From sequence record OZ346205.1: a DNA stretch of 64,000 nucleotides. The stretch is one strand, 5' to 3'. Made by a program: the position numbers and the translations under genes. The stretch comes from a phage. The notes below the pieces were generated by a model, which was given only the letters and a program-made list of their open reading frames with translations, was not told the origin of the DNA and searched no databases. This document shows, one piece after another, positions 3,858 through 56,550 of the stretch; position 1 is the stretch's first letter; each line of letters opens with the position of its first letter.

Positions 3858-3871
3858 ATCGGAGGACTAGC

Positions 3872-4456
3872 ATGAAAATACTTCAAGAGTTTAAACTTTA
3901 CCAACCGGGATCTGGCGAATACCGCACCAACAAGGAAACCAAGGAGCTGACCCCTCAAGAGGTTGAGGATTACACAGCATACACTGGGTATTTTTTACGT
4001 AATGATGATGGCGATTGGTATGTGCAGTCACGAACATTACGACAAGAAAATCCGGGGTGTATCTTCCTACTTGTTGACGAGAAGGGAATTCTTAAGACAT
4101 CTACAGAAGAACCTGATGCCTTATGGCCTGCTCCAGGTCTTCGTGTGGTTATCGCCAAAAAAGAAGAGGTACCAGAAAACATTATGCTTCACCACGACGC
4201 TTTGCGTTTAGTTGGTGATGAATTTGTCACAGACAATGAATTCTTTGTTCAACAGGCAGAGGGTGTCATAGAGACAGAACTTGCTTGGGCTACTGCTAGA
4301 ATTGGTGCCTATCAAGACATGATTGACCTTGAATATGATCTTACTGATGACCAGAAACGTAACATCAGAGATTTGAAAATGTACAGGGTAAAACTTCTTG
4401 AAATAGATACATCTAAAGCCCCTGACATTTTCTTCCCGGAGCGACCTACCCTCTAA
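3872..4456 (+). CDS. hypothetical protein (194 aa), possibly fibre-associated
   Basis: Track ORF between the two fibre paralogues; function inferred from position only. Confidence 0.45.
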   Translation: MKILQEFKLYQPGSGEYRTNKETKELTPQEVEDYTAYTGYFLRNDDGDWYVQSRTLRQENPGCIFLLVDEKGILKTSTEEPDALWPAPGLRVVIAKKEEVPENIMLHHDALRLVGDEFVTDNEFFVQQAEGVIETELAWATARIGAYQDMIDLEYDLTDDQKRNIRDLKMYRVKLLEIDTSKAPDIFFPERPTL

Positions 4457-4871: not shown

Positions 4872-5915
4872 ATGACTAAACCAGTTATCCCTCTTGATAT
4901 TTGGGCCAATCAGGATGTTGTGCTTGAAAATACGGGAGAGTTGAATAAGTCTCAACCAAAAAAAGAAGAGAGATTGAAAGGTTGGGATATGACACAAAGA
5001 GTGGCATGTGAAGTTGTTAACTTTGAACTTCACATGCTTTCTGCGTGGTTGAAGCATTTAACAGAAGATGTTGTCCCAGGATGGGATAATAGATTCTTAA
5101 GGGTCACTAATAATCTAGCAGACGTTCCAGACAAAGCTGCTGCACGTCAAGTTCTCAATGTATACTCACCTGAAGAAATGGACGATCTATATGTTGACAA
5201 GTCTGGAGACATAATGACTCAGACTCAAACTTTAGGTCTTCAAAGAATCGAGTTTGCATCTGCGTCAACAGACAGTGCGGCAATATATACCACCATAACT
5301 CCAGACAAGACGACGATGGATTTCTGGATTATGGACAACATCGGTGGTGCTGACGGCACAGACCTTGATGATCCTTCTCACCAAATAGATGGGTTCCGTT
5401 GGAGATTTCAACCTTCTGGTGGGCAGCCTGTGTTTTCAGCTATGAAGCTCAATGCTATAACTGCCAACCGTGCAAGACTGGCTATCCAAGGAAATCTTGA
5501 ATGCAACGATGCAAAAAGTTCCTCTGCAAATGCCAATGCGGTCACGATACCAAGAGCCACTGTTAATGGACAACAATCCTGCGGAAGCGCTCAAATAGGT
5601 GGAAGAGTTGATTGTAACGATGAAACCGTCAGGGGCCAATATGCAACAGTTGGTGGAAGAAACGTGGTCCGCAGGGTAAATGGTAACGGCGCAGACAGTA
5701 GTGGTAACCTTACTATTCCTATGCCTAGCAGAGGGGTTGATGATGTAAGGATAGCAAACCGTTTCAAAACCACCTACAGAGAGTCAAGAGTCTACCCTGG
5801 ACATGTGATGTGCTCTGGTAACTACGCTTATAAACACCCTTATCAAGGTGATTACTGGACAGGTGCTATCCAAAAACTTGTAAATGGTCAATGGATCACT
5901 ATATCTTATGCTTAA
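4872..5915 (+). CDS. tail fibre / receptor-binding protein, paralogue 2 (347 aa)
   Basis: ATG at 4872 after AGGAGA; conserved termini shared with 2817-3857. Confidence 0.6.
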   Translation: MTKPVIPLDIWANQDVVLENTGELNKSQPKKEERLKGWDMTQRVACEVVNFELHMLSAWLKHLTEDVVPGWDNRFLRVTNNLADVPDKAAARQVLNVYSPEEMDDLYVDKSGDIMTQTQTLGLQRIEFASASTDSAAIYTTITPDKTTMDFWIMDNIGGADGTDLDDPSHQIDGFRWRFQPSGGQPVFSAMKLNAITANRARLAIQGNLECNDAKSSSANANAVTIPRATVNGQQSCGSAQIGGRVDCNDETVRGQYATVGGRNVVRRVNGNGADSSGNLTIPMPSRGVDDVRIANRFKTTYRESRVYPGHVMCSGNYAYKHPYQGDYWTGAIQKLVNGQWITISYA

Positions 5916-10900: not shown

Positions 10901-13633
10901 AAGATAATCCCCGGTCCTGAGACTTTGGGCAATGCCGTTGACCCTTATATCATCATGACTGCACTGAGATCAAACATGGATGGGACATCCATGTCCATGC
11001 AAATTCCGGTAACAAACGGATACAAACGTGTTGTGATGATCATTAAGTGCGACCTGATAGGTAAACAAGTTCTTGCAGAAAACGGGACATCCACACATCC
11101 TTTTGAGATCGCTCTGCACTATCAGTTTGCTGACTCACCTTTTGCAGGGGATAAGAGAATATCTGATACAGACGCACAGCGTTGTAAGAAAGTATTGTTG
11201 GGTGCAGGTTGGTGGTGGTATGAGTTTGATTTAACAGACAAATTCACCGACACGTCTAAAGTTGTAACAGGACTTCGTCTAGACCTTGGCGAGAACATGC
11301 ACAAAGCTGTTTGTGATGGCACCTATGGTGACCCTACAATATACCTAAAATATGTTTCTTTTGAGCATCCGGAAGATGTTGTCTACGGTCCAAAACTGAG
11401 ATTGTTTGGCAGCTGGATTGCAAAAGATAGGGTAGGCATGGGTAAGAAGGTAAGAGGGCTCTTGGTTGATGCAGGAACAGAAGACATGCTGGTTAATGCA
11501 GTGTGGCCTGAATTACCTGGGACTCAGTGGGACAACTCAGCCAAATCTATAAACTGGTTTAACATTCATAGGGCCATGTGGACCACTAACTGCTACTTGT
11601 GGAGAGAGCTTAACGATCAGGCCTTTGGATTCAGCGATGGTAGAAGGATGGCGATCATTTGCTGGACAACACTGCAAAGATGTTATGACCATGACTATGA
11701 GATTGGGGGCAGGGCATGGAAAAATATCAGGGATAGAATCATAACCAATTTTGCAGACGACAACGGTGGTGGAGCACATAACTTTGGCACAAGCCGACTC
11801 ATCCATTTGAACGGATCCTCAGCCTACAAGAAAGAAGGTTACTCTGGGTCTATGATCGAGTGGGGTCTGGTGAAAGATGCTCGCGTATTGATGGGCCAGC
11901 AACTTGCTGCCGCAATAGGTCCCAGCGCAGTGCAGTCGGTTAAACCAGCGTGGTTCGATATTCCATTGTGGTCACCCGGAACACCGGGAACTGCTGCAAT
12001 CAACCCTACCACTGGGGATCTAGAAATCTCCTGGGAGGACTTGAAGCAGGTCGGTGGTTGGGACAAAACAGGGTACCAGGTTCAGTGGTGGAGAGCTGAT
12101 GGATCTTTAGCTGCTGATGAGTTTGTTAAGGACAATTTCTACACTATGTCCTCTGCAAAAGCACAGCAATTATTTGGTCAGGCAACTCCGTCAACGATCA
12201 CCATGTCTATGTGCTGTAAAGACAACAGGACTGGAGCTTTGGGGCCAAGGGTTGCTAAAGTTTTCTCAGGTATTAAATGGAATCTACCTGTCCAAAGTAT
12301 TTCATGGAAGCAAATAGGTGATAACAAGCTGCTGGTTACCCCTGCCTGTCAGTTCAACGCAACTCTTAACGTTGATCCTGCTGTTGCGGCAAACTCAGCT
12401 AAAGCTTCTGACTTCTCTGTGTCTAACACTGCTATGGCAGATGTGAGGAAGATTGACACGCTGAACGCCAGAATTACCTGTAAAAACACTTATGGCACAT
12501 TCCAGATCATCAACAACTTCACAGATGCTGATTCTAAGGTAGTGAGGACAGCAAGCCAGACTTTGAGTTTAGGAACTCTGGCCTATGCGGCCCTAATCAC
12601 TGAACAGTCGGCAACACTCCAAGGAGGTGGTGTAGGCAAGTCCATTACAACACCTGTGTGGAAGCCAAATGAGTGGGTTGTGTTTGATTTGACTGTGGAC
12701 TTCTCCAGCGATAATAACTGGACATGGGTAAGGAATTGTTTGTCACAGTTGATGGGCGGTCCAAGCTCCGTTAGTGATAGTCACGACTCTACTGACCCGA
12801 GTGTGTTCCAGGTAGGTAAAACTCACCCAGAGACTGGAGAAACGTTGCCTGACAGGAAGTATGCTTTGGTTTGCATCTCTTACGGGAAGGCAGATGTCAC
12901 CTTCTCAGGGACACACACTTATAACGGAACCTACAACTTCTCAAGGAAGTATAGTCTCAAAGCAGGGAACATTATAGACGAGGTTGGTGTGCTGTATAAT
13001 CCGGGCAACGGCATAGGGATTGTTGGTGGTAAACTGCAGATGCAGGAACCTTCTATTACCCCTTCCAACGTATCCGGGATTAGAAAGACTTGGGAAAGTA
13101 GTAATACCAACATTGCAACAGTGGATGCCACCACAGGACTGGTAACATTTAAAGCTACTGGGAATGTCACCATAAAGTTTGTAGTTACAGATGATGCAGG
13201 GCGCAAAACGTCTTCAACATCTTTTACTGTCAAACAGATGGCACCACAGTGGAGAATGTGGATAGGTACAGCAACAAACGGGGCATACCCTAATCCGGCA
13301 GGTACTTCTGGTATGAAGACTTTCTCTACAAGCAAACCGATGGAGTACGGCAGCGGTCCTAAGGTAGGGCAGATGGTGTACTTTGGTGCGTATATTCCTG
13401 AAATTATAGGGCTTCCGAGAAGTCAGCTTCAGTTGCTGTTTGGGGCTGGTGTTGACGATCTTGCCACTTTCGGGTATAGCGACAACATCGAGGCTGCAAG
13501 GAGTTCAGGATGGGTAGGGTTCAGAATGGAGTCTGGAAAGGAAGGCAGGATTCTAGGGACAGCCTCTATAGGTGTTATGTTCCCTGGTGACCAGCAGTAT
13601 CGTCTAGAAGCCTACGCAACCTTTTCTCGTTAA
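7997..13633 (+). CDS. giant virion protein with Ig-like (Big_2) domain (1878 aa)
   Basis: Uninterrupted 5.6 kb ORF; C-terminal segment ...NIATVDATTGLVTFKATGNVTIKFVVTDDAGRK... matches the Big_2 pattern. Confidence 0.65.
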   Translation: MLPIPLLKLGRHFLDKRGGIKELAVLSYPIDNSDGTSNTVSYVNSLAILFDDGQLNITGYNKFGECRTGDRNPINYPSETAWNVDHVWRADRAFVIRTFDNQFFYIGCTAGLIGSTAAGGNDVCVNEWTPLPEQIVKGLHLDTHPERLIEVMGGINNTVWVIAEAEGTGILKLYGSGNNTYGSLHVDKNQHATPVKIGETSENPETGPWKNPSINCEVHDNSVIFGGPRGFWIAGYDFLRNNSRNDLVWPPVQITRNDLRGIPADEEWKGFMCGPNGAIIATQRMHKPNDQQLVNVFYGQDVWGDDTWRSLNITYTHEVIMARGYGTSGIFFNNGTKQYRGFSRNLCNDIGAQSANNSPRANFIHYQALATAKYVEQRLPVSWTESVYFQGIHREGFLGTFTVVNGKLWWSGIPRGSFAGSNNLFGGRLNSQGFTEIPENWYKNVPVDSWGIEDIFDVNGVSNVSNIYIGDTVKMKLKPQPEGATFIIDKIELVNAAGTVVTDANYQFSTNWNHGGANEVVVTQYNRNINRRGLYSIKITYHDKHGTGRTYTTRTLNWNTIVPAYPSNGKWHTVGRNKQFHVNDTVYFGLNGTQPAVEGDTSYMVRLHRMDAGSVTYDVTQEIYDQRRATYDNIVKTQALWEFNPNGKGGKMLQVNEQNGTSLTVHEHPDPWPDPGKPRPGARTLKIVSHDAGYFGIRWEATVRYVDGTTNNIGITLGGTSEDNSLKIAYTPRGISIDSMDVVRNGYGDVNVKVTLGEHLGGERIIMYTFDHDPRTNGTYANQAWSYLINAPEPNTKEFYYGMKRDVCKKTGTHDWIAICVKDERTAWDEPVNRWFIGIPTRSDKYVAEYIVCMGGTNLNMCWNEDVNKYSDYDYMRDYSCNLWFNQTTGYPPRQARVNPAIFTDTQVFLTKQANEVQTFKNKYAPNKWFYNCYGAFFWGPGELPGGGSCLNEATYASDYIMGQVKKYKIIPGPETLGNAVDPYIIMTALRSNMDGTSMSMQIPVTNGYKRVVMIIKCDLIGKQVLAENGTSTHPFEIALHYQFADSPFAGDKRISDTDAQRCKKVLLGAGWWWYEFDLTDKFTDTSKVVTGLRLDLGENMHKAVCDGTYGDPTIYLKYVSFEHPEDVVYGPKLRLFGSWIAKDRVGMGKKVRGLLVDAGTEDMLVNAVWPELPGTQWDNSAKSINWFNIHRAMWTTNCYLWRELNDQAFGFSDGRRMAIICWTTLQRCYDHDYEIGGRAWKNIRDRIITNFADDNGGGAHNFGTSRLIHLNGSSAYKKEGYSGSMIEWGLVKDARVLMGQQLAAAIGPSAVQSVKPAWFDIPLWSPGTPGTAAINPTTGDLEISWEDLKQVGGWDKTGYQVQWWRADGSLAADEFVKDNFYTMSSAKAQQLFGQATPSTITMSMCCKDNRTGALGPRVAKVFSGIKWNLPVQSISWKQIGDNKLLVTPACQFNATLNVDPAVAANSAKASDFSVSNTAMADVRKIDTLNARITCKNTYGTFQIINNFTDADSKVVRTASQTLSLGTLAYAALITEQSATLQGGGVGKSITTPVWKPNEWVVFDLTVDFSSDNNWTWVRNCLSQLMGGPSSVSDSHDSTDPSVFQVGKTHPETGETLPDRKYALVCISYGKADVTFSGTHTYNGTYNFSRKYSLKAGNIIDEVGVLYNPGNGIGIVGGKLQMQEPSITPSNVSGIRKTWESSNTNIATVDATTGLVTFKATGNVTIKFVVTDDAGRKTSSTSFTVKQMAPQWRMWIGTATNGAYPNPAGTSGMKTFSTSKPMEYGSGPKVGQMVYFGAYIPEIIGLPRSQLQLLFGAGVDDLATFGYSDNIEAARSSGWVGFRMESGKEGRILGTASIGVMFPGDQQYRLEAYATFSR

Positions 13634-36056: not shown

Positions 36057-38480
36057 ATGAGTATGTGGTCTTTCGATTTTGAGTCATCCGGTTTGCTGGA
36101 AGACCCAGATCTTTATTATCACTGCGGTCTGTTTAAAGAGCTGAATAAGAACCGTTTTATGCTGTTCCTTCCTCTAAATGACCGCACACACTACTCCGAG
36201 GAGGATATAGAAAAGGCTAAGAACTTCATTCTGTCAAAGAAAACTCTTTATAAAGATTTTGAAGTTCGCATAGCAGATTTTTCGGAGTTGGAAGGTTGGC
36301 TTACAGGCAATTCTGACTGGTCACCAACAGCTTTGAACTGCCATAACTGCTACAGTTATGACTTTATGCTAATGGAAAGATTATCCGGTATTCATTTTGA
36401 TATGTTCCGTGATCCTAAATGCATGGGGACTATCAACGACCACCAGGTTAACCTGTTTGATACGTTGGCTATGAGCCGAATCTTGTGGCCTGATCGCCCT
36501 TTACCAAAAGGTTGTCCGGACGCTGTATTCAACCCGGTTACTAAGAAAATGCAACCTGTTGGTCCTCACGGCCTTATGGCATGGGGCTACGCCCTTGGTA
36601 ACCAGAAAGTTCAAATTGATGACTGGCGCGATCTTCCGTTGTGGAAGTATGTGGATCGTGTATTCGAGGACGTTATCATCCAGGAGCTGCTCTGGAAAGA
36701 GCTGGTAGCGGAATCAAAAGGTGTATTCTACGGCAAATCTGACATGCAGAACTTTATGTACGATCCAGCCAAAGAGAAGCCGAAAGGGTTCAAGAAGATC
36801 ACCTGGAAGAACGCATTACGTCGAGGCATGCTGCAGCACTTCCTGATGGAGCTGCAGGCCCGTCAGGGTGTATACTTCGACATAGATGGAGCTATTGCTT
36901 TACGTGACCGTTGCGATGCGTGGATGAAAGAAATCGCTGATCGTGTTGAACCACAACTACCTTTAAAAGAGCTGTCAATGTCTCAGCGGCCCAAGTTCCC
37001 TGAAAAGCCGTTTAACCAAGACGGGACAATCTCTAATAATGGTTGGAAATGGTTAAAAGATAAGCTTGGCTATCCTGTAGACATGAGTGCTTTAGAGTTC
37101 AAAGCCCCGCCTAAGCGAGCATTTACCTCTACAGGAGATGTCAGCAAGATGGGGATAAAATGGTGTGAAGAGATGGGCTGCAAAGACCCCGATAAGATGG
37201 CTGATTTCTTGAGAGGCTATATTAAGGGCACCTCCACACCACAACCCTTACCTAAAGAGCTGATGGATCAGGCAATAAGTGATCTGCAGCAGAAGCGAAT
37301 GCCTGACTGCAAGATACCTATGAAAATCAGCAATCAGGACGACATCAAGCGATACCTAATCAGTGCTGGTTGGCTCCCAACAATGTGGAGAACTAAAGAT
37401 GTAACTAAAGACAGCAAGAAGAAAGCTTTACCTGATGCAGATGTTGATGCACGAGTATATGCATATATGGACGAGCTTTTGGAGTCAGAGTATTGTGACC
37501 TAATTATCAACTTCTGGAACAAAACTGATGCTAAGTTCCAGACAACCGTGCACAAGTTCCGAAGCTTTCCTAACTCCGAAAGGATTAAAAAGGAAGTATT
37601 CGGGAAAATACGTAGAAAAGCCAGGGCACTTATTACTTCTCCGCAACTGAAAGATACGTTTGGACACCTATGCCCAAATCTTGAAAAATTGAACGGAGAG
37701 ATGGCTAAAGATATCGTCTTGTGGTTATCATTGCGAAACCGCAGATCGGTCCTTGATCCAATCAAGGAGGATAAGGTTGATACTGGTCTTCTTAATCACC
37801 CACGTTTGAAGATTGACCATAAGCTTCCTGCTAAAAGCTCTGGATTAACAAACACTTCCAGACAGAAACACAGTATTTGTGCAAACATGCCTAAACCATC
37901 TCCTAAAGTGGTTATGGGTAAAGAGATGCGTAGTCTGTGGGGTGTTCCTCCGGGATACTTTGAGATCGGTATTGACGGGTCCAACTTAGAGCAGCTTATC
38001 GGGGCTTGGGGTGCCTTTGAGTTCGACAACGGCCTGTATTATGATGTTGTAAGTAACGGAGACGCACACCAAAACAATGCTGAGGCATATACAAAAGTGG
38101 CAGGCAGAGAGGTGTCCCGTAACGACGGTAAACCTATCACGTATGGGGTTATGTACGGGGCACAAAAAGATAAAGTTGCAGATATGTTGGACATCTCCCC
38201 AGAGTTGGGACAAAGGGTAATCGATGCACTCTGGGATGCCAACCCAGGTCTTAAGGGGCGCAAAGAGGATCTGGAGAAATTCTGGGAAGCAACAGGTAAG
38301 AAGTTTATCTACTCTTTTGATGGTCATGCTATCTGGACCCGATCTAAACACTCTTTACTTAATGCATACCAACAAAATGGCGGTGCATCGTTGTGTGACT
38401 TAGTTGGAATACTCATGCACCACCAGATGGTGAAGCGTGGGTGGTACGATGAAGGTGTTCGTCGTATTATTTATTACCAT
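36057..38480 (+). CDS. family A DNA polymerase, exon 1 (ends inside motif C at ...YYH)
   Basis: Exo motif FDFESSG; motif A IDGSNLEQL; motif B KPITYGVMYGAQ; frame terminates 2 codons after the His of the expected HDE motif. Confidence 0.8.
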
Positions 38481-38756
38481 AAATAACATTGTGGCTTCAT
38501 AGAGTAATCTATGTCGAATAACCTCTTTAACTGCGGGAAGCCTAAACCTTATGGCAAGGTAATCCGCAACGAAGCGCTCAAAAGAGCGAACGCTCAGAGG
38601 CCATTCCGAAAGGAAGTAGACCAGCAAGTGCGGTCGAAATGGGAGGATTCCTGTGGTTGCTTATCATAGGAATATGAGATGGTCCGATCCTACGTGAAAA
38701 CGTATGGCTATGCACGTAATGGTGCGGGGTAGCTTAACGACCTACCTGAACTATTG
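38481..38756 (+). ncRNA. putative group I-like self-splicing intron (no endonuclease ORF)
   Basis: 276-nt ORF-free insert between ...YYH and DEYQ...; exon ends in U with GUGG 11 nt downstream able to pair CCAU (P1-like); insert ends in G. Confidence 0.55.
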
Positions 38757-47506: not shown

Positions 47507-47660
47507 GTTTTCTGAATCGGATTTTCTGGAAATCGTTCCAGCTCTCGACCTGAAATTTTTGGGGACGAAATCGATTTTTCGTTTTCAGAAATGGATTTTT
47601 AAAATTTCTATATGGGAATATTTTATGGGATACTGTTTTATAGGAAATTGTTACGGAGGG

Positions 47661-47678
47661 TAATTAGCATGCTAATTA
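47661..47678. repeat. perfect 18-bp palindrome (operator-like)
   Basis: TAATTAGCATGCTAATTA is its own reverse complement. Confidence 0.8.
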
Positions 47679-48127
47679 AATTTATTAAATGCGAGGAGTT
47701 CTCATTTAGAATTTTGAATGATAATCATTCTCGTTTGCAGAATAACGGGCAGGCCCGGTGATTGTCTCCCGGCCCCTACTGCCCCGGCTTGTTATTATAG
47801 TATCACACAGGACAAAGAAAGCAAGGATTTTTTGCATAAATTTTTAAATGATAATGATAACCGTTCTCATTTTATGCAGCGCCCATCCCCGGTGGTTGTC
47901 TCCCCCGTCACCGGTGCCTGCCGTCCTTTCGATAGGTATATCGTGCCACCTGGCGGGGCCGCTGTCAACACTTTTCAAAAAATTTTTCTAACCTGATGCG
48001 CTAACCGCTGCAACCTGGCGGGGTCAGCCTGGCAGGACCTAACTGACCGGGTAGGAGAGAATGAAGGCTTGTAAACCTGGTGGGCCTATGCTACAGGATA
48101 GGTAACAATTGAAGAGGAGGTACAAAA

Positions 48128-49048: not shown

Positions 49049-49105
49049 TTGACACGCTGCAAAATTCAAGTAAACTAGTCACAAAAGGCGGGAATGTTTC
49101 CCGCC
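49049..49105 (+). promoter_or_regulatory. sigma70-like promoter plus 5' leader hairpin (cassette)
   Basis: TTGACA, spacer, weak -10 (TAAACT); hairpin GGCGGGAA-tgt-TTCCCGCC then CAACACAAAGGAAAAAGATC ATG. Confidence 0.4.
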
Positions 49106-49124: not shown

Positions 49125-49529
49125 ATGAATAAGAACGTACGCCGCATCATGAACGAACTGGCAAACGATGAAAAAATTATTGACATGCATTTGATCAACA
49201 TTTGCCGCCGTTGTGTAACATACAACAACCGCGCCGCAAAAGCGCGTGAGATGAACGCAAAAGGCACCTTAAAGCCATTCCAGGTGGTGGTAAAGGCCAT
49301 TAAAGATGTAACTAATACGGCAAACCAGGTACAGGGGAACACCAACGAGAGTACCAATATTGATCCGGCTTACATCATGAAACGGATCCGGACCTGCAAG
49401 AACAAAGAGCAAGTGTATAATGTCATAGACTGGTTGGATTCTATGGGCGATGTGGTGTACAATAGATTCTCGGCAGCTATTGAGATCCAGCTTGACAGGT
49501 TAGACGGTAAAGTACTTAAAACTTACTAA
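49125..49529 (+). CDS. hypothetical protein (134 aa)
   Basis: Track ORF behind cassette leader. Confidence 0.55.
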   Translation: MNKNVRRIMNELANDEKIIDMHLINICRRCVTYNNRAAKAREMNAKGTLKPFQVVVKAIKDVTNTANQVQGNTNESTNIDPAYIMKRIRTCKNKEQVYNVIDWLDSMGDVVYNRFSAAIEIQLDRLDGKVLKTY

Positions 49530-49530
49530 A

Positions 49531-49576
49531 TTTATTTTTAGATGGCCTTGACTCCAGGGCCATCAATAAAGTAAAT
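49531..49576 (+). repeat. conserved about 45-bp palindromic element, copy 1
   Basis: TTTATTTTTA-GATGGCC-ttgactccag-GGCCATC-AATAAAGTAAA, immediately after a stop codon. Confidence 0.6.
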
Positions 49577-49609
49577 TAATCTCAGCTAAGCGAAAAAGGG
49601 GGCTTTAAG

Positions 49610-49729
49610 ATGAGCACTACACGCCAATACACAAAGGTAACTATTATCGCCTGCGTTGTCGGTTACATCCTGGCGCAAATGTTAATGAGTAGCGCTAACA
49701 GTTTTGCAAAATTTTTCTTAAATTTTTAA
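49610..49729 (+). CDS. small hydrophobic peptide (39 aa)
   Basis: ORF below the track cut-off; RBS AAAGGGGG; one predicted TM segment. Confidence 0.35.
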   Translation: MSTTRQYTKVTIIACVVGYILAQMLMSSANSFAKFFLNF

Positions 49730-49783
49730 TTGACAAGCTAACTTAGATTGATATACTTAAACACGTAAACGGGAAAACTTCCC
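49730..49783 (+). promoter_or_regulatory. sigma70-like promoter plus 5' leader hairpin (cassette)
   Basis: TTGACA, 16-17-nt spacer, TATACT; hairpin GGGAAAACTTCCC then ACACAAAAGGAGAAAACACC ATG. Confidence 0.5.
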
Positions 49784-49808
49784 AGAACACACAAAAGGAG
49801 AAAACACC

Positions 49809-50150
49809 ATGACTACTATGGCCGCCGCAGAAAAAGCTATTCAGATCGCCGCACTGAAAAAACAGATCGCAGACCTTGAGAACAAGATCGATAACTTTGA
49901 AATCGACGAGGACAAGTACGACGAAAACTATGATGAATGGTTAGACGAGATCTACGGCGAAATTATGATCGGAAACATTTCTTTTCTTCCGTCGCGTATC
50001 CTCAAGGAGCTAGATCCTATCGCTTACCGCTGCGGATTTAGCGACTACATCGACAGCCTGGATATTGAGGACGATGAAGAATACCAGGAATTACAGACAG
50101 AGTTAGAAGAAGCAAAAGAAGAGCTTGCAGAACTGGAAGAAAACGAGTAA
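49809..50150 (+). CDS. acidic coiled-coil-like protein (113 aa)
   Basis: Track ORF; Glu/Asp-rich with heptad-like pattern. Confidence 0.55.
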   Translation: MTTMAAAEKAIQIAALKKQIADLENKIDNFEIDEDKYDENYDEWLDEIYGEIMIGNISFLPSRILKELDPIAYRCGFSDYIDSLDIEDDEEYQELQTELEEAKEELAELEENE

Positions 50151-50163
50151 GATTATTTTTAGA

Positions 50164-50207
50164 TGGCCTTGACTCCAGGGCCATCAATAAAGTAAACTTT
50201 ATACTGT
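50164..50207 (+). repeat. conserved about 45-bp palindromic element, copy 2
   Basis: Near-identical to 49531-49576. Confidence 0.6.
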
Positions 50208-50239
50208 TAACACTGAACTAATGCATAGGAGTTAAAACC

Positions 50240-50485
50240 ATGGCAGCACTAATCACCAAATATTATGCCCCTACCAACACCAAAAGCGCCCGTATCATGG
50301 TAAAAGGCTTCGGACGTAAAAAGGTGTACACCTGGGATTATGCCTTAGACACGGAAGACAACTACACCAACGCGATGACCGATTTTATTAATGATCTGAA
50401 CACGCGGATCTTGACAAATTATAAAATTACCGATATTGCCTATATAGGGGAAGGCGGGATCTGTTTTGTCGGTATCGTCAAATAA
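50240..50485 (+). CDS. hypothetical protein (81 aa)
   Basis: RBS AGGAG then ATG. Confidence 0.5.
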   Translation: MAALITKYYAPTNTKSARIMVKGFGRKKVYTWDYALDTEDNYTNAMTDFINDLNTRILTNYKITDIAYIGEGGICFVGIVK

Positions 50486-50487
50486 GC

Positions 50488-50530
50488 TGTTTTTTCGGTG
50501 GTCCTGGTAGCAGGGCCATCTATAAAGATA
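50488..50530 (+). repeat. degenerate copy of the about 45-bp element
   Basis: TTTTTCGGTGGTCCTGGTAGCAGGGCCATCTATAAAGATAG; retains GGGCCATC.ATAAAG core. Confidence 0.4.
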
Positions 50531-50560
50531 GTTTATCAATACAATGAAAGGAGAAAGTAC

Positions 50561-50914
50561 ATGATCAGCGGGGCAAGTTTTATTATTGGCGCTATTGCTA
50601 CGGCTTTAATTGTAAACAAGATCCAATCTAAAAACGAAAAAGATAGCAACGCCCTTACAGAATACCCGTTTTGGGTATTCAACGACAATGAAGACTATAT
50701 TATCAAGTACAAGAATGAGAAGGGCGACCAGGTAACACCGCGACCGATCCCGGCTTACAAGATGCAAGAAACACTATACCGCCTAAAGGCTGGAGGCGCA
50801 AAAATCGTAGACTTTTGGGGATACGATCACACAGATCAGGAAGTTATAAAGCGCCGTATCCGGGCTATTCAGGCCAATATTGAAGTTAGCAAGGGGGGAA
50901 TATATGAAGATTAA
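50561..50914 (+). CDS. membrane-anchored hypothetical protein (117 aa)
   Basis: ATG after AAAGGAGAAAG; N-terminal TM helix. Confidence 0.5.
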   Translation: MISGASFIIGAIATALIVNKIQSKNEKDSNALTEYPFWVFNDNEDYIIKYKNEKGDQVTPRPIPAYKMQETLYRLKAGGAKIVDFWGYDHTDQEVIKRRIRAIQANIEVSKGGIYED

Positions 50915-51101
50915 TTTTGAGAAGATTGTAAAGCGATCTCATGCTTCCGAAGAGCTGCCGGAACGCCGCCAGCGCAACAATAAACTGAATAAGCCAAAAA
51001 GATTTGGGAAGATCTGGCGGAATCATTATGATCGCAAATTACCGGGCCTGCTTTTGGAACGTGAACGACAGGCGGAACGATACCGCCACAAAGGCAAATA
51101 A
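50904..51101 (+). CDS. small basic protein (65 aa)
   Basis: ATG after AAGGGGGG; Arg/Lys-rich. Confidence 0.45.
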   Translation: MKINFEKIVKRSHASEELPERRQRNNKLNKPKRFGKIWRNHYDRKLPGLLLERERQAERYRHKGK

Positions 51102-51109
51102 CAACCAAC

Positions 51110-51136
51110 GCCCCGCCATTGTGCGGGGCTTTTTAT
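51110..51136 (+). terminator. intrinsic terminator
   Basis: GCCCCGC-cattgt-GCGGGGC followed by TTTTTATTT. Confidence 0.6.
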
Positions 51137-51282
51137 TTCTATCCTACGAATAGCGCCCCTGGTTGGCCCTGTAAGCGCCAAAAAGGCCCCACCTATGCAA
51201 TCGCCCACCTTTAACCTGAAAACATCGCTTAGGGCCGTTTTATGGCGTTAAAAATATCATTGACAGTGATTTTATTTAAAGC

Positions 51283-51311
51283 TTGACATCTTAAACAGGT
51301 TAGCTATACTA
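51283..51311 (+). promoter_or_regulatory. sigma70-like promoter (cassette)
   Basis: TTGACA, 16-17-nt spacer, TATACT. Confidence 0.45.
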
Positions 51312-51344
51312 ACCACATCAAAGAGAGAGAAAGGAGTAAACGCC

Positions 51345-51605
51345 ATGCGTAAATTAAAAAATTTTGATAAAGTTGATGTTGTCCTGAATAATTTTTACTA
51401 CTGCAACAACAAGGCCATTTGGTGGCGTGATAGTTCCACCGATAAAGTCAAGGCGCGCTTTCTCCAGGGGCACTGGCAAGGCCGCCCAGTGATTAAAATC
51501 ATGGGGCAATTGGTAGCGTTTAAAAATTGCCGCCGTGTTGATGACGTTGAAGAGATCTTGAATATTTTACGCCACAATAATTTAAAAAATAGTGTTGACA
51601 AGTAA
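51345..51605 (+). CDS. hypothetical protein (86 aa)
   Basis: RBS AAAGGAG then ATG. Confidence 0.5.
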   Translation: MRKLKNFDKVDVVLNNFYYCNNKAIWWRDSSTDKVKARFLQGHWQGRPVIKIMGQLVAFKNCRRVDDVEEILNILRHNNLKNSVDK

Positions 51606-51652
51606 ATCTCAATAAGTATACTTAAGCACACAGGCGGGAAGTTTTCCCGCCA
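51595..51652 (+). promoter_or_regulatory. sigma70-like promoter plus 5' leader hairpin (cassette)
   Basis: TTGACA, 16-17-nt spacer, TATACT; hairpin GGCGGGAA-gtt-TTCCCGCC then leader. Confidence 0.5.
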
Positions 51653-51679
51653 CTAACAAAGAAAATAGGAGAAAATATC

Positions 51680-52303
51680 ATGACCACCGTTAACATTACC
51701 ACAGGTTGCAATTTATCTTTCGACGTGCTGACCGACGAACAAAAAGAAAAAGCTGTTGAAATGGTCCGCGAAAGAGAAGAACACAGCGGGGATAACTTTT
51801 TTGCAGAAAGTGTAATTGAATACTATAAAGAATATGTTTTTCCAGAGTACGGGCTTGAAGATACCAAGGTACAGTGGTCCGGCTTTTGGTGTCAAGGCGA
51901 CGGCGCATCAATTAGCGCTGAAAATGTAAACTTAGAAAAATTCTTGCGTAAGGTTAAAGCGCTTACAAAATTTCGCTCAATTAGACACTTGTTCGGCACA
52001 ATGCACGATGGCGAACTATCAGCCAGCGTTGAACGTATCCCGTTTAGCCATTATCATCACGAAAACACAATAGGCGGGTGCATCGATACCAACTGGCTAG
52101 ACCTGACCACCAAGCAAGAGGATAAAATTGAAGAGCTGGAAGAGCTGATCACCGAGACGGTACGGGAGCTATCCCGCAAGGTTTACGTAGACCTGGAGCA
52201 GGCCTATCTTGAACAATTCACTACCGAAAACCTGATCGGCCTTATCGAGGCCAATGATTGGCGGTTTGATGTGGATGAGTATGGCGAGATGACTTTTTCA
52301 TAA
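51680..52303 (+). CDS. hypothetical protein (207 aa)
   Basis: Track ORF behind cassette leader; no motif recognised. Confidence 0.55.
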   Translation: MTTVNITTGCNLSFDVLTDEQKEKAVEMVREREEHSGDNFFAESVIEYYKEYVFPEYGLEDTKVQWSGFWCQGDGASISAENVNLEKFLRKVKALTKFRSIRHLFGTMHDGELSASVERIPFSHYHHENTIGGCIDTNWLDLTTKQEDKIEELEELITETVRELSRKVYVDLEQAYLEQFTTENLIGLIEANDWRFDVDEYGEMTFS

Positions 52304-52311
52304 ATAAAGTG

Positions 52312-52367
52312 TTGCAATAACCTAAAAACCTGCTATATTAAAACTCAAGGGGCAAGACGTTTGCCCC
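52312..52367 (+). promoter_or_regulatory. sigma70-like promoter plus 5' leader hairpin (cassette)
   Basis: TTGCAA, spacer, TATATT; hairpin GGGGCAAGACGTTTGCCCC then CACACAAAACAAAGAGGAAAACATC ATG. Confidence 0.45.
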
Positions 52368-52392
52368 CACACAAAACAAAGAGGAAAACATC

Positions 52393-52773
52393 ATGAAAAA
52401 CACTACTAAAGCTATTGACACCGTTATGTTTAACCTGGTTACCTTTCGCGAGGATATGAAAGATCTTCCACGTGAAACAGTGTGCGATCACATTGAAAAC
52501 TATCGCAAACTAATCAAAGAGTTGCCTTTAAAACGTGACCAGTATGCGGCTAACGCCATGCTTAATGCCATGATCAAAAAGATGATTCAGTGTGATTTAA
52601 CTCTGGCCTATGACTATGCGGGTGGTCGTTTTGCAGTATACAATCAGCCCGTGCCCGGTATGGGCACCACCGAAGAATTGCACGCGCTCAATCTAAAACA
52701 AGACGTATGGGATAACATGCCCCGCGTGGTGGTGTGGGCAGAAAGCGGAAAGATTTACGGCGATAATTTTTAA
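52393..52773 (+). CDS. hypothetical protein (126 aa)
   Basis: Track ORF behind cassette leader. Confidence 0.55.
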   Translation: MKNTTKAIDTVMFNLVTFREDMKDLPRETVCDHIENYRKLIKELPLKRDQYAANAMLNAMIKKMIQCDLTLAYDYAGGRFAVYNQPVPGMGTTEELHALNLKQDVWDNMPRVVVWAESGKIYGDNF

Positions 52774-52783
52774 TCAGGTAACA

Positions 52784-52809
52784 GGCGGCATATTTGCCGC
52801 CTTATTGTT
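52784..52809 (+). terminator. intrinsic terminator
   Basis: GGCGGCA-tatt-TGCCGCC followed by TTATTGTT. Confidence 0.5.
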
Positions 52810-52837
52810 AAACAGAGTTGCAAAAGAGGTACATAGA

Positions 52838-53209
52838 ATGGAATTTATTATTTTGGCTGTAGTAGTTGCCTTGTTCAACGCCTGGATCGCTGGCAAGATG
52901 GGTAGATCCGCCTTTTTATGGTTTATTATATCTATTTTCCTGGGGGTGGTTGCAACTATTGTACTTGTTATCCTTGCAATTGTTGACAAGGGGAATAATA
53001 GAAAGGGTAAAGTATTTTCAGACCTGTACGACGCTCAAACGTTTGTCAACGCCTATTATAGTGATCTTCCAGTCTCCCTACGCTGCAGCCTGGCACAACA
53101 AGTTTTCGATGAGGCTAAAACCAGAGATCAAGCCCATGAGATATGTTTAACTGAGGCGGATCGCCTATTTGAGAGGAATAGAAAATATGTGGGCCAACCG
53201 TTTAAATAA
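52838..53209 (+). CDS. two-TM membrane protein (123 aa)
   Basis: ATG after AAAGAGG; two hydrophobic helices. Confidence 0.5.
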   Translation: MEFIILAVVVALFNAWIAGKMGRSAFLWFIISIFLGVVATIVLVILAIVDKGNNRKGKVFSDLYDAQTFVNAYYSDLPVSLRCSLAQQVFDEAKTRDQAHEICLTEADRLFERNRKYVGQPFK

Positions 53210-53432
53210 TGCCACGTTAATTAATCCCTTTAGTGAAGATTTGAAGCCAGCCGCCTGGCGTGATGGATTCAATAACGAACGCTTTATTTTCAAGCCTGAT
53301 CTTGAGGAATTTTATAACAATGGATCGAACAACAGCGGAGATAATTTTTCTTGGGATGTGCGTGGTGATGGTACTCCTGGGGGCCATTGTAAACCACGTC
53401 ACTACTACCAGGAGGAAAGAGGGAGACGATGA
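53187..53432 (+). CDS. hypothetical protein (81 aa)
   Basis: ATG after GAGAGGAA; overlaps upstream gene end in another frame. Confidence 0.4.
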   Translation: MWANRLNNATLINPFSEDLKPAAWRDGFNNERFIFKPDLEEFYNNGSNNSGDNFSWDVRGDGTPGGHCKPRHYYQEERGRR

Positions 53433-53548
53433 CAACCAAGGATAAGCCCCGTACCGATAAGGCGCGCCGGGTTATGGTATGGCTTGAGATCATCGCCCTT
53501 GAAATATTGCTAGGCGTAGGGATGTACTTTATCGCTGTAAGTAACTAA
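53429..53548 (+). CDS. small membrane peptide (39 aa)
   Basis: ORF below the track cut-off; RBS AGGAGGAAAGAGGGAG; hydrophobic C-terminal half. Confidence 0.3.
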   Translation: MTTKDKPRTDKARRVMVWLEIIALEILLGVGMYFIAVSN

Positions 53549-53551
53549 GAG

Positions 53552-53582
53552 CGGCCCCCGATCATGGGGGCCTATCTTTTAA
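53552..53582 (+). terminator. intrinsic terminator
   Basis: GGCCCCCGATCATGGGGGCC hairpin followed by TATCTTTT. Confidence 0.55.
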
Positions 53583-53602
53583 AAAATTTTTCTTCCGGGG
53601 TG

Positions 53603-53655
53603 TTGCAATCCGGTCCGGAATGTGGATAATAACAATCAACGGGGAGCTAATCCCC
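53603..53655 (+). promoter_or_regulatory. sigma70-like promoter plus 5' leader hairpin (cassette)
   Basis: TTGCAA, spacer, TAATAA; hairpin GGGGAGCTAATCCCC then leader. Confidence 0.45.
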
Positions 53656-53686
53656 ACCACCACAAAAACCAGAAAGGAGAAACAAA

Positions 53687-53887
53687 ATGAGCAACAATAT
53701 CCGCGTTATTAACTTCAAAAAAGAAGAAAAAATTGCCGTGCTGATTGACGGTCAAGAAATCTTCAAGGGCGACTATGAAGATCATCAAACGGCGATTAGT
53801 ATCACTCGCGTGATTGGTTATCATAATTTCTACCCCCAAGGCGCTGAGGCAGCAGTTAAACGAATCAAAGAGATTGTAGGCCTGTAA
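53687..53887 (+). CDS. hypothetical protein (66 aa)
   Basis: Track ORF behind cassette leader. Confidence 0.5.
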   Translation: MSNNIRVINFKKEEKIAVLIDGQEIFKGDYEDHQTAISITRVIGYHNFYPQGAEAAVKRIKEIVGL

Positions 53888-53888
53888 A

Positions 53889-53935
53889 ATTTATTTTTAG
53901 ATGGCCTTGACTTCAGGGCCATCGATAAAGTAAAT
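53889..53935 (+). repeat. conserved about 45-bp palindromic element, copy 3
   Basis: TTATTTTTAGATGGCCTTGACTTCAGGGCCATCGATAAAGTAAA. Confidence 0.6.
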
Positions 53936-53980
53936 TTAAACCCTGTTAAAATACCACGCAGTTAACAAGGAGTGATAGAC

Positions 53981-54280
53981 ATGTTTATCCAGGCTAATAA
54001 TCTTTATTTCTTTGATGGTCAGATCGTAGATGGTGTGGAAGTGGAGATCACCGGGTGCCCTGGCGGTCAGGCTATGACTTTTCGGAATAATGCCTTTGAT
54101 GATTCTCATATCGTTATGAGAATGGAAGTTACGAAGCTGGACGACAAGAAAACACTTATTGACTATTCTGTGAAAGATCATCCAGACTACCGCATGATCC
54201 ATGGTGATTTGTGCATTGTTGACCGTGACAAGGTGGGCGGCATTGTGATCGCTATTGTGAACGATGTTTTCTCAAACTAA
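53981..54280 (+). CDS. hypothetical protein (99 aa)
   Basis: ATG after AAGGAG. Confidence 0.5.
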   Translation: MFIQANNLYFFDGQIVDGVEVEITGCPGGQAMTFRNNAFDDSHIVMRMEVTKLDDKKTLIDYSVKDHPDYRMIHGDLCIVDRDKVGGIVIAIVNDVFSN

Positions 54281-54297
54281 TTTCAGCAGGCGATTTT

Positions 54298-54648
54298 ATG
54301 AAAGTCAAACTATATTACCTTAATGAGCTTAACCCCCTTGCCCAGGTCCGCGCCCTAGCTAATACCTTGATTTGTGAGAAATCTGTATATTGTGTTGAGC
54401 TTAACGCCATGCGTGAACGTCTCAAAGGTGGTTACTTTGACATCCATGCTGCAATCAACGGCCTGAATATGGAATTTATACGCTTACGTAACAGCCGCCG
54501 GAATCTGGCAAGAATGGAACAAGATCCGGCCCACCTTCGTAAGCTGGTTATTGAAAATCATCTGATGTTTAATGCCGAGGGTGATTATTACCATTTTCAC
54601 CGCAAACGCTGGTACCGTGGCGGCAATACAGGCAAGAATGCAAAATAA
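54298..54648 (+). CDS. hypothetical protein (116 aa)
   Basis: Track ORF. Confidence 0.5.
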   Translation: MKVKLYYLNELNPLAQVRALANTLICEKSVYCVELNAMRERLKGGYFDIHAAINGLNMEFIRLRNSRRNLARMEQDPAHLRKLVIENHLMFNAEGDYYHFHRKRWYRGGNTGKNAK

Positions 54649-54683
54649 GGCCCCTAGCAGGGCCTGCAGCAATATAATCACAT

Positions 54684-54717
54684 AAAGGCCATGCGGTTGC
54701 ATGGCCTTTATTATTTT
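54684..54717 (+). terminator. intrinsic terminator
   Basis: AAAGGCCATGC-ggt-TGCATGGCCTTT hairpin followed by ATTATTTT. Confidence 0.55.
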
Positions 54718-54765
54718 GGCGTTACAACGGCATACGGGGCGCTTAAAAAATTTTTAAAGAAGTAC

Positions 54766-55190: not shown

Positions 55191-55424
55191 ATGATGGAAC
55201 AAATTAAACGCGCCGAGGCTATTAATGGCAACGTGATCTATTTTGTCAGCAAAAACGAAAAAGGCGTACCATATGCGGCAGTAATAGTACAACCTGACGG
55301 CGATTATTGGTTTACTGTGTACGGCGCTTATTCTTTTGGGCGTCCAGTGCATGATAAAATTTTGAAAGTAGCGAACCCTACCGGGAAGAATATCACAGCA
55401 GAAAAATTTTTTGAAAATAGTTGA
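55191..55424 (+). CDS. hypothetical protein (77 aa)
   Basis: Preceded by hairpin GGGGCCGAAAAGGCCCC and RBS AGAGAGG. Confidence 0.5.
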   Translation: MMEQIKRAEAINGNVIYFVSKNEKGVPYAAVIVQPDGDYWFTVYGAYSFGRPVHDKILKVANPTGKNITAEKFFENS

Positions 55425-55474
55425 CATGACCATATAAGACTGTAATATATAAATCAAAGGGGGCAACGAACCCC
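55421..55474 (+). promoter_or_regulatory. sigma70-like promoter plus leader hairpin (cassette)
   Basis: TTGACA, spacer, TAATAT; short GGGG-caacgaa-CCCC stem. Confidence 0.45.
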
Positions 55475-55499
55475 ACCAACTACAAAGAGGATAAAAATC

Positions 55500-55679
55500 A
55501 TGGCTATTATTGCAAAGACTGAGATCATAGGCTTAGATTCTATTCTCCTCGCATATGAGGAAGCTATAGAAATGTATGTGGTTTCCTATGGTGAGTATAT
55601 CCGTGAATATAAATCTATTGATCTGGCTTTTGAATGTTATATCCGCCAGGTTAATAAAGCGTACGATGATTATCGTTAA
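55500..55679 (+). CDS. small hypothetical protein (59 aa)
   Basis: ORF just below the track cut-off; cassette leader CAAAGAGGATAAAAATC ATG. Confidence 0.4.
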   Translation: MAIIAKTEIIGLDSILLAYEEAIEMYVVSYGEYIREYKSIDLAFECYIRQVNKAYDDYR

Positions 55680-55685
55680 AATAGT

Positions 55686-56067: not shown

Positions 56068-56550
56068 CTAACAGAAGAGAATAAACACCATGAAACAGAA
56101 ATTAATCGATGCAGTGATCTTGGTTATTGCCCTGGGTATTGGCCTGATTGCAACCATGTCTAATATGATCTTGTCTTCCAACGGTATCGGGTGAGGTTGG
56201 CAAATGATCACTAACAAAACAGGCAAAACGGAATTTTTACGCAACTTACAGATCGGCAAGCCTGAGATCTGGTACTGCACTAAAACACCGCGTGACGAAA
56301 TGGCTTCAAAAGGGGTCATGAACGAATAAACGGCATCATCATCTGCTTCAGGGAATGCTCCCAAAGACTTCATGTCTGAGCCCTTGACAAATACAAGGTT
56401 TTGATCAAAAGCTTCTTGGGGATCAATCCGATACATATTTCGTAGAATATCGCTTACCTCCTCATCAAGAGGTGAGTATGCTGTGCACGTTTTTCCGATC
56501 AAGCTTTGAGAATCAGGGTATCCACCTGAAGTTTTAAAATAAACAATCAT
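56068..56550 (-). CDS. hypothetical protein; 3' extent uncertain
   Basis: RBS GAGGTGA before the ATG at 56550; N-terminal about 75 residues look protein-like, the remainder is Cys/Pro-rich and overlaps plus-strand small ORFs. Confidence 0.35.
   Translation of the reverse strand: MIVYFKTSGGYPDSQSLIGKTCTAYSPLDEEVSDILRNMYRIDPQEAFDQNLVFVKGSDMKSLGAFPEADDDAVYSFMTPFEAISSRGVLVQYQISGLPICKLRKNSVLPVLLVIICQPHPIPLEDKIILDMVAIRPIPRAITKITASINFCFMVFILFC

Follow-up and report, generated by a model that had tools for sequence, protein, structure and literature searches.

Two described systems come closest to the repeated intergenic element dealt with here. The promoter-early stem-loops (PeSLs) of T4-type phages are repeated cassettes of promoter and stem-loop that extend from stop codon to ATG, some of them with the stem-loop over the -35 hexamer (PMC2839356, PMC4122927); they have been described only in T4-like phages, with strong, near-consensus promoters and with stem-loops for which termination of transcription was demonstrated. 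The ribonuclease III (RNase III) signals of phage T7 (R0.3, R0.5, R1, R1.1, R1.3 and others) are intercistronic, lie on the sense strand and start at or beside the upstream stop codon. The rules for the Escherichia coli enzyme comprise an 11-bp helix between cut and loop, a loop of irrelevant sequence, a distal box of U:A and then U.G beside the loop, and a proximal box that has no G:C or C:G at position 2 and preferably reads G:C, W:W', A:U, W:W' (PMC1540722). Full contacts need about 22 bp, i.e. about two helical turns (PMC1540722, PMC6212723), and internal loops at RNase III targets lead to single-strand cuts, by which stabilising 3' hairpins are left (PMC3867540). In the present study a 64,000-nucleotide stretch of phage DNA (record OZ346205.1), hereafter called the window, was analysed with regard to an element of about 50 nt which recurs four times between early genes, and this element was compared with both systems.

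The window belongs to Vequintavirus: it matches rV5-like E. coli myophages with about 97% identity, rV5_ev168 being the best match. We regard the element, with a probability of about one half, as a composite intergenic control cassette of the early operons of these phages; it resembles T4 PeSLs as well as the promoter/RNase III regions of T7, and is thereby familiar in kind and not previously described in this phage group. The inverted repeat GATGGCC-N10-GGCCATC is found exactly at 49541-49564, 50162-50185 and 53900-53923 and with two mismatches at 50497-50520, a number of matches equalled in none of the shuffled windows. A covariance model built from the four copies recovered them with 72-81 bits (E 1e-13 to 1e-16), and nothing in the rest of the window exceeded 14 bits. 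All four are on the sense strand, all flanking genes being on the plus strand, and each occupies the space from an upstream stop codon to the next ribosome-binding site (RBS). They lie within predicted promoter-to-terminator units, right after the first or second cistron, an arrangement also seen with the T7 early RNase III sites. The repeat as such, three near-identical copies and a diverged one, had been recognised correctly in the original prediction, and its start coordinates were in part displaced: 50164, given for copy 2, falls inside the stem about 12 nt too far to the right of the true start at about 50151/50152, and the starts of copy 4 and of the degenerate copy move from 53889 to 53890 and from 50488 to 50487. 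The upstream stop codons (49527-49529, 50148-50150, 50483-50485 and 53885-53887) lie 0-2 nt from the element, at the base of the lower stem, instead of the 2-14 nt assumed before, and the next ATGs (49610, 50240, 50562 and 53981) follow 30-46 nt past ATAAAGTAAA, within the expected 30-50 nt.

The copies and their parts are listed below, with folding energies (dG) in kcal/mol and scores from two models, the element's own covariance model and a T7-site model, which was trained solely on five T7 early RNase III sites and searched against both strands of the window (128 kb).

49529-49577, plus strand: copy 1, two-tier hairpin (dG -22.7, z -6.9; 81.4 bits own model, 21.5 bits T7-site model)
49529-49538/49568-49577 and 49541-49550/49555-49564, plus strand: lower and upper stem of copy 1
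49539-49540 and 49565-49567, plus strand: internal loop of copy 1, with the tetraloop ACTC at 49551-49554
49548-49553 and 49572-49577, plus strand: promoter-like hexamers of copy 1, -35 TTGACT and -10 TAAATT
Between 49567 and 49568, plus strand: predicted RNase III cut in copy 1 (AAU^AAAG)
50150-50198, plus strand: copy 2, same architecture (dG -21.8, z -5.4; 79.4 bits own model, 21.1 bits T7-site model)
50162-50185, plus strand: upper stem of copy 2, with -35 TTGACT at 50169-50174, -10 TAAACT at 50193-50198 and the predicted cut at 50188^50189
50485-50533, plus strand: copy 3, degenerate, hairpin only (dG -28.2, z -6.8; 71.9 bits own model, 13.6 bits T7-site model), without a -35 (CCTGGT instead) and with a poor -10
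50497-50520, plus strand: upper stem of copy 3, GGUGGUCCUG/CAGGGCCAUC, with two G.U pairs and the loop GUAG
50482-50536, plus strand: extent of the lower stem of copy 3, which differs in sequence; predicted cut at 50523^50524
53888-53936, plus strand: copy 4, same architecture (dG -24.7, z -7.1; 80.3 bits own model, 20.0 bits T7-site model)
53900-53923, plus strand: upper stem of copy 4, loop ACTT, with -35 TTGACT at 53907-53912, -10 TAAATT at 53931-53936 and the predicted cut at 53926^53927

On the plus strand all four copies fold (-22 to -28 kcal/mol, z -5.4 to -7.1) into a two-tier hairpin. Its lower stem is AU-rich and its upper stem GC-rich, each of 10 bp; between them is an internal loop of 2/3 nt, and a tetraloop caps the structure. 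The upper stem (GAUGGCCUUG/CAGGGCCAUC, one U.G pair) extends beyond the 7-bp palindrome originally noticed, and the lower stem is formed by the A/T-rich flanks, which pair mutually (TTTATTTT/AAAGTAAA; UUUAUUUU with AAAGUAAA, one U.G pair). TTGACT, formerly placed in the loop, is only partly found there, as TTG is paired in the stem and ACTC alone constitutes the loop. Folding of the minus strand is far worse (z about -2.2 to -2.7), as wobble pairs turn into C.A mismatches, and since all flanking genes are on the plus strand, the well-folding strand is the mRNA strand.

For an analysis of covariation, 43 copies (30 distinct) from 14 loci were aligned to the covariance model. Paired cells amounted to 98.8% compared to 94.8% in column shuffles, none of 500 being as high, and pairing fell to 36-55% when partner columns were slid by 1-3 positions. 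Four pairs of the lower stem change on both sides (A-U/G-C, U-A/C-G, U-A/A-U and A-U/U-A); the changes in the upper stem are all one-sided transitions with pairing retained through G.U, and thus pairing exists only on the plus strand. Copy 3 has diverged in the sequence of lower stem and loop, yet it displays the most stable RNA fold (-28.2), and its three upper-stem differences are all 5'-strand transitions which keep the pairing only through G.U. With DNA parameters its two-tier fold is not the minimum-energy structure, which favours RNA over a cruciform or a single-stranded DNA hairpin; these two were rejected on this result and on the worse folding of the minus strand. The fold stayed intact in natural variants with 1-2-nt insertions, and the asymmetric internal loop (2 nt 5', 3 nt 3') was kept in all copies, its 3' side measuring 4 nt in two variants. 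The last two bases of the tetraloop vary freely; invariant in essentially all copies are the 3' strand CAGGGCCAUC followed by nAUAAAG and the U5 run opposite. A search for distant orthologues to be used for covariation found the flanking proteins to be Vequintavirus-specific or scattered in unrelated phages, and Rfam 15 gave no family at gathering thresholds or E up to 10, the best sub-threshold match over a copy being rhtB (23.1 bits against a threshold of 55, E 1.3). Selection on the RNA structure is considered very probable.

As to the function of the hairpin, its resemblance to RNase III targets is pronounced in several aspects. The two 10-bp stems around the 2/3-nt internal loop give the required duplex of about 22 bp in all four copies and only on the sense strand, and the asymmetric internal loop expected at such a target is present throughout. 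Read from the loop inward, the pairs are G:C, U:A, U.G, C:G, C:G, G:C, G:C, U:A, A:U and G:C, followed by an A x A mismatch at position 11 as in native R1.1; the distal box is canonical (U:A, U.G). In the register assumed by analogy, position 2 of the proximal box is A:U, which is allowed, and position 4 is a mismatch, again as in native R1.1. By this register the 3' strand is predicted to be cut at GGGCCAUC-AAU^AAAG (CAUC-AAU^AAAG), which would align with the T7 cuts, reportedly placed by Dunn & Studier (1983) at CCUU-UAU^GAUUG in R1.1 and CCUG-AAU^AGG in R1; the stretch concerned is GGCCUG-AAU-AGG in R1 compared to GGCCAUC-AAU-AAAG in the element. RNase III sites are not annotated in the T7 records NC_001604 and V01146. 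The five T7 early intercistronic regions, when folded, showed the same architecture as the element: a GC-rich upper stem of 9-10 bp with U:A/U.G pairs beside a loop of 4-5 nt, then an asymmetric internal loop and a lower stem rich in AU, together about 22 bp. Several similar copies per genome and a position beside or over promoters, as with the E. coli C promoter start 3113 inside the R1 hairpin, are likewise common to both. They differ in that the internal loop of the element is smaller (2/3 versus about 4/5 nt) and its lower stem longer (10 bp), and in that its carrier is an unrelated myovirus without an RNA polymerase of its own. Common ancestry is not detectable: the reverse search with the element's model against T7 had R1, R1.1 and R0.3 as its top matches, none of them significant (E >1).

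The T7-site model ranked the copies 2nd, 3rd, 4th and 7th in the window (21.5, 21.1, 20.0 and 13.6 bits), with full-length matches in which all 14 modelled pairs were intact. Of the late T7 sites held out from training, R4.7, R18.5, R6.5 and R3.8 obtained 39.2, 36.7, 18.9 and 13.8 bits; in the 33-kb T7 late region R13 was missed and nothing else exceeded 11 bits. The copies fall within this range of late sites, and the element therefore scores like a genuine site. Among the roles that the original prediction had proposed, an RNA processing site appears to fit the hairpin best, judged by the sense-strand fold, the covariation and the match to the T7-site model. Cleavage by RNase III itself is put forward only tentatively.

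Copies 1, 2 and 4 contain in addition TTGACT-18-TAAAYT, a 9/12 match with TTTATTTTTA upstream, in which the -35 straddles stem and loop and the -10 lies in the lower stem, on its 3' strand. In these copies the loop always opens with AC (of TTGAC) while its other two bases vary, as would be expected of a -35 constraint. One copy is carried by KKE7M, a phi92-like Justusliebigvirus. There, a block common to the window ends with the element and is followed by a 5' hairpin, an RBS and a gene also present in the relatives muut and JLBYU50, where this gene is preceded by the canonical promoters TTGACA-16-TAAACT and TTGCAA-16-TAAACT. KKE7M displays TTGACT-18-TAAATT at that place; the -10 hexamers coincide exactly in register, the sequences that follow them are identical, and the canonical early promoter of JLBYU50 has AATAAAGTAAACT in common with the element. 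A promoter, as initially suggested, is accordingly worded here as plausible and as an ordinary sigma70-type site, not as a phage-specific class. The likeness of the ATAAAGTAAA flank to T4 late promoters dissolved, this flank being the spacer end plus the -10 hexamer, identical to that part of the JLBYU50 promoter; it also pairs and covaries with the 5' flank. A T4-type late promoter (TATAAATA, gp55-dependent) was rejected, as the element reads AATAAAGTAAAT and the gene content of rV5 does not fit: the late-gene motif of rV5 is TggTAaAAtA, and it has no homologues of T4 gp33/45/55 (PMC3606486). That the element is not a canonical intrinsic terminator was borne out, since its 3' flank (AAUAAAGUAAA on the plus, UAAAAAUAAA on the minus strand) forms no U-tract on either strand and it was not retrieved in the terminator scan. 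The motif is absent from the promoter and terminator lists of the rV5 genome paper, including Table S4, and a 'promoter' feature at this place in phage Gotham was not accepted as published annotation, as it is an automated PhagePromoter call. Three natural variants have a spacing of 19-20 nt and keep the hairpin. Given these variants and copy 3, which lacks a -35, the hairpin has a function of its own; the promoter is probably an added, weak feature of three copies, and for these, from their sequence, activity is rated slightly more probable than inactivity.

The early region also possesses canonical sigma70 promoters and the operons that depend on them.

49049-49076, plus strand: canonical early promoter TTGACA-16-TAAACT, by consensus match only; its transcript would run through the gene at 49125-49529 into copy 1
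49730-49757, plus strand: canonical early promoter TTGACA-16-TATACT, then a 5' hairpin; KKE7M homology begins here, and the operon comprises the gene at 49809-50150, copy 2, the gene at 50240-50485, copy 3, the genes at 50562-51101 and a terminator
51110-51129, plus strand: intrinsic-terminator-like hairpin with U-tract, closing the operon of copies 2 and 3
53603-53630, plus strand: promoter-like site TTGCAA-16-GATAAT with a 5' hairpin; the operon comprises the gene at 53687-53887, copy 4 and the genes at 53981-54648

TAAACT serves as a -10 in this genome, because the canonical promoter at 49049-49076 has it. Cassettes of canonical promoter and 5' hairpin are situated at 49730-49800, 51595-51680, 52312-52392, 53603-53686 and 55421-55500, and are ordered as AT-rich tract, TTGACA, 16-nt spacer, TAnnnT, about 10 nt, a short GC hairpin (e.g. 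GGCGGGAA...TTCCCGCC) and RBS; the same design with near-identical hairpins was observed in intergenic spacers of Justusliebigvirus phages (muut, L075). The element had been thought to be distinct from these cassettes. It proved to be of the same design, with the hairpin wrapped round the -35 instead of following the -10: intergenic slot, AT-rich upstream tract, TTGAC -35, TAnnnT -10 and distance to the RBS correspond, and the two types are interchangeable at one locus (KKE7M, muut). The canonical cassettes differ in their 16-nt spacer, stronger -10 and short hairpin 3' of the start site, i.e. in the 5' untranslated region, whereas in the element the spacer measures 18 nt and the hairpin precedes the start site. 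Since transcripts from the embedded promoter would start downstream of this hairpin, it is present only in read-through RNA, and only there can the selected RNA structure act.

After the last gene of the copy-4 operon a perfect 13-bp palindrome, ATAAAGGCCATGC-GGTT-GCATGGCCTTTAT, was noticed at 54682-54711. On the plus strand it resembles an intrinsic terminator with the tail TATTTTGG; the region 54670-54720 is the top match of the T7-site model, with 23.9 bits on the minus strand (GGCCUUUAUGUGAUUAU, very like T7 R0.5/R1.1) and 16.8 bits on the plus strand, and the palindrome has GGCCAT and ATAAAG in common with the element, in a different order.

With PeSLs the element has in common the AT-rich tract, sigma70-like -35/-10 hexamers, a stem-loop that can overlap the -35, the span from stop codon to Shine-Dalgarno sequence (SD) or ATG, and the location in regions of small, variable early genes where recombination between copies deletes or moves open reading frames (ORFs). 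It differs from them in its weak promoter match (9/12, 18-nt spacer), the missing U-tract and the two-tier stem of about 22 bp. The literature offered no paper that connects PeSLs with rV5-like phages. Deletion and exchange of ORFs by way of the copies were both encountered. A metagenomic contig (IMGVR_UViG_2051223002_000007, locus L021, 214-267) contains a hybrid with the left flank of copy 1 and the right flank of copy 2; the 39-aa and 113-aa genes between the copies are missing, and copy 3 still follows at its usual distance of 335 nt. KKE7M shares window positions 49729-50196 with 95% identity. The shared stretch begins with the -35 of the canonical promoter, includes the 113-aa gene and stops at the 3' end of copy 2, which is thereby the 3' boundary of the promoter-gene-element block. 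KKE7M acquired this cassette across subfamilies (Vequintavirinae, Stephanstirmvirinae). Further early cassettes are common to KKE7M and the window in shuffled order; window positions 55481-55681, 52426-52759 and 56139-56302 match locus L043 at 5270-5468, 3758-4091 and 11118-11282.

In keeping with the original suggestion to look for the pattern elsewhere, relatives were found to carry the element, and the window has no copies beyond the four. In rV5_ev168, positions 1-136375 of 138171, there are only the four syntenic copies, in sense orientation and within 4.4 kb of the small-gene early region, and FV3, VB-EcoM-WM, JEP1 and several metagenomic contigs have the element at the same four places. 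Among 50,697 phage records the element is present in 121, namely 120 of the Vequintavirus type and KKE7M. Pattern scans of IMG/VR and metagenomes gave only further Vequintavirus contigs and matches attributed to chance, 5,426 E. coli genomes gave no match, and a loose pattern in 185,579 bacterial species genomes gave eight single matches in unrelated metagenome-assembled genomes, judged to be chance. Over 5.5 kb, seventeen MG0656xx records that bear the name 'Campylobacter phage' and give C. jejuni as host agree to about 94% with rV5-like phages of E. coli; they look like mislabelled or contaminating Vequintavirus sequence.

Several points weigh against the composite cassette or one of its parts. 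Positions 1 (U:A) and 3 (G:C) of the proximal box depart from the optimum of G:C and A:U, and in copy 3 C:G replaces U.G in the distal box and G.U stands at position 2 of the proximal box, for which reason its reactivity could be low. E-values of the T7-site model are only approximate, 0.003-0.7 over all copies and 0.003-0.008 at the better end; the three good copies do not count as independent, any two-tier hairpin of such shape is rewarded by the model, and its top match in the window is a terminator-like antisense hairpin (54670-54718). No Vequintavirus transcriptomic, transcript-end or cleavage data were found in the searchable literature. As regards the promoter, about 28 chance matches are expected in 12 kb for 9/12 with an 18-nt spacer, and the canonical promoters nearby all use a 16-nt spacer. 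Gene conversion, and not selection, may be part of the reason why copies 1, 2 and 4 are nearly identical. Finally, copy 1 of vB_EcoM_Gotham (MT682716; locus L002, 1640-1690) has a 5-6-nt deletion (CCAGGGCCATC to CCAATC) by which the upper stem is abolished (dG -8.9, z -2.0) and the spacer of the putative promoter is cut to 13 nt; copy 1 is therefore dispensable in the Murica lineage, and single copies can be lost.

Each of four other explanations accounts for less of the evidence than the composite one. If the element were mainly an early sigma70 promoter of PeSL type, with a hairpin that attenuates or terminates read-through and is not touched by RNase III, then AT-rich tract, -35/-10, stem-loop over the -35, the span from stop codon to SD and the recombination between copies would all be accounted for (PMC2839356), as would the automated promoter call in Gotham; such a role is nevertheless unlikely, since on neither strand does a U-tract come after the upper stem or the whole hairpin, copy 3 has retained a hairpin and no -35, and termination does not need a two-tier geometry of about 22 bp with an internal loop. 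We hold it to be about equally improbable that the hairpin is a passive mRNA stabiliser which stays uncut by RNase III and, like REP hairpins and other intercistronic hairpins, bars the way to 3'-to-5' exonucleases once the AU-rich spacer has been cut at some other point, e.g. by RNase E, and so prolongs the half-life of the upstream cistron. A stable sense-strand hairpin directly after the stop codon is what this would require, the AU-rich single-stranded spacer downstream could be an RNase E substrate, and covariation supports RNA structure and is silent on the enzyme; a simple GC stem would suffice for it, however, and the conserved internal loop, the lower stem, the UA/UG distal box and the match to the T7-site model are left unexplained.

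At the DNA level, the 7-bp inverted repeat GATGGCC-N10-GGCCATC, centred on the -35, might be an operator at which a dimeric phage or host regulator controls three or four weak promoters. The dyad does overlap the -35 and spacer of the promoter-like site, its 3' half-site and ATAAAG are invariant in the 43 copies, and a putative transcriptional regulator is encoded in the genome, so that the site for a DNA-binding protein proposed earlier retains some ground; yet neither compensatory changes 40 nt apart in the lower stem nor the upper-stem transitions of copy 3 that preserve G.U can be explained by it, the half-sites are 17 bp apart centre to centre and hence off the helical repeat, and copy 3 has no promoter to regulate. 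We consider an operator highly improbable. Even less credit is given to a recombination linker or selfish repeat without any role in expression, whose copies persist through cassette exchange and gene conversion. The deletion hybrid of copies 1 and 2, the cassette boundary of KKE7M at the 3' end of the element and loop variants that tend to be common to the copies within a genome (ACAC in both JEP1 copies) are of the sort it would produce, but copy 3 has diverged and kept its structure by compensatory changes, which requires selection on pairing, orientation and register to the stop codons are fixed, and there are only four copies, all syntenic and absent from bacterial genomes.

According to the composite cassette, a read-through transcript from the upstream promoter would fold into the two-tier hairpin of about 22 bp, and host RNase III would most likely nick the 3' side of the internal loop (predicted GGGCCAUC-AAU^AAAG). 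The nick would separate the cistrons and leave a protective 3' hairpin on the upstream mRNA. In the DNA, copies 1, 2 and 4 would double as a weak sigma70-type promoter, so that the downstream gene would be served by processed read-through RNA as well as by fresh initiation about 16 nt further on, and copy 3 would retain the hairpin function only; as a side effect, early-gene cassettes would be linked by the repeats in recombination. A more far-reaching version, in which one 50-nt sequence is read twice, as a weak early promoter in DNA and as an RNase III site in RNA, forms the portable right-hand boundary of cassettes moving between subfamilies and possibly offers, in its invariant 3' strand CAGGGCCAUCnAUAAAG, a recognition site for a phage factor, is regarded as doubtful. 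If it were true, the cut AAU^AAAG about 16 nt upstream of the promoter start would mean that read-through and fresh initiation give nearly the same downstream mRNA.

Some further features of the window and its relatives were recorded. A long AU-rich hairpin of 16 pairs (ATTTTTGGGGACGAAA...TTTCGTTTTCAGAAAT) at 47555-47592 (plus strand) was picked up by the terminator scan, and the antisense strand at 47673-47716 (minus strand) has a 15-bit match of the T7-site model. At 38471-38706 (plus strand) there is a Group I catalytic intron (Rfam RF00028, 64.7 bits with a gathering threshold of 50, E 4e-14, full-length model), presumably situated in a gene for replication or nucleotide metabolism. In rV5_ev168 (locus L001, 29817-32375; by offset about 58.8-61.4 kb of the window) about 2.5 kb without annotated genes lie between converging plus- and minus-strand early units, corresponding to the 'non-coding' box of the rV5 genome paper.

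Phages of the rV5 type are widely used, in the biocontrol of E. coli O157 and in phage-therapy collections, and what is known of their gene regulation comes solely from predictions of promoters and terminators, in which the element was missed. If the composite cassette is true, it would be the first evidence of host RNase III processing early polycistronic mRNAs in a large myovirus, outside the classical cases of T7, T3 and lambda, and the PeSL idea of regulatory cassettes that double as recombination linkers would extend beyond T4-like phages. Phage engineers would be given a defined 50-nt part, insulator, processing site and weak promoter in one, to be kept intact when early genes are moved.

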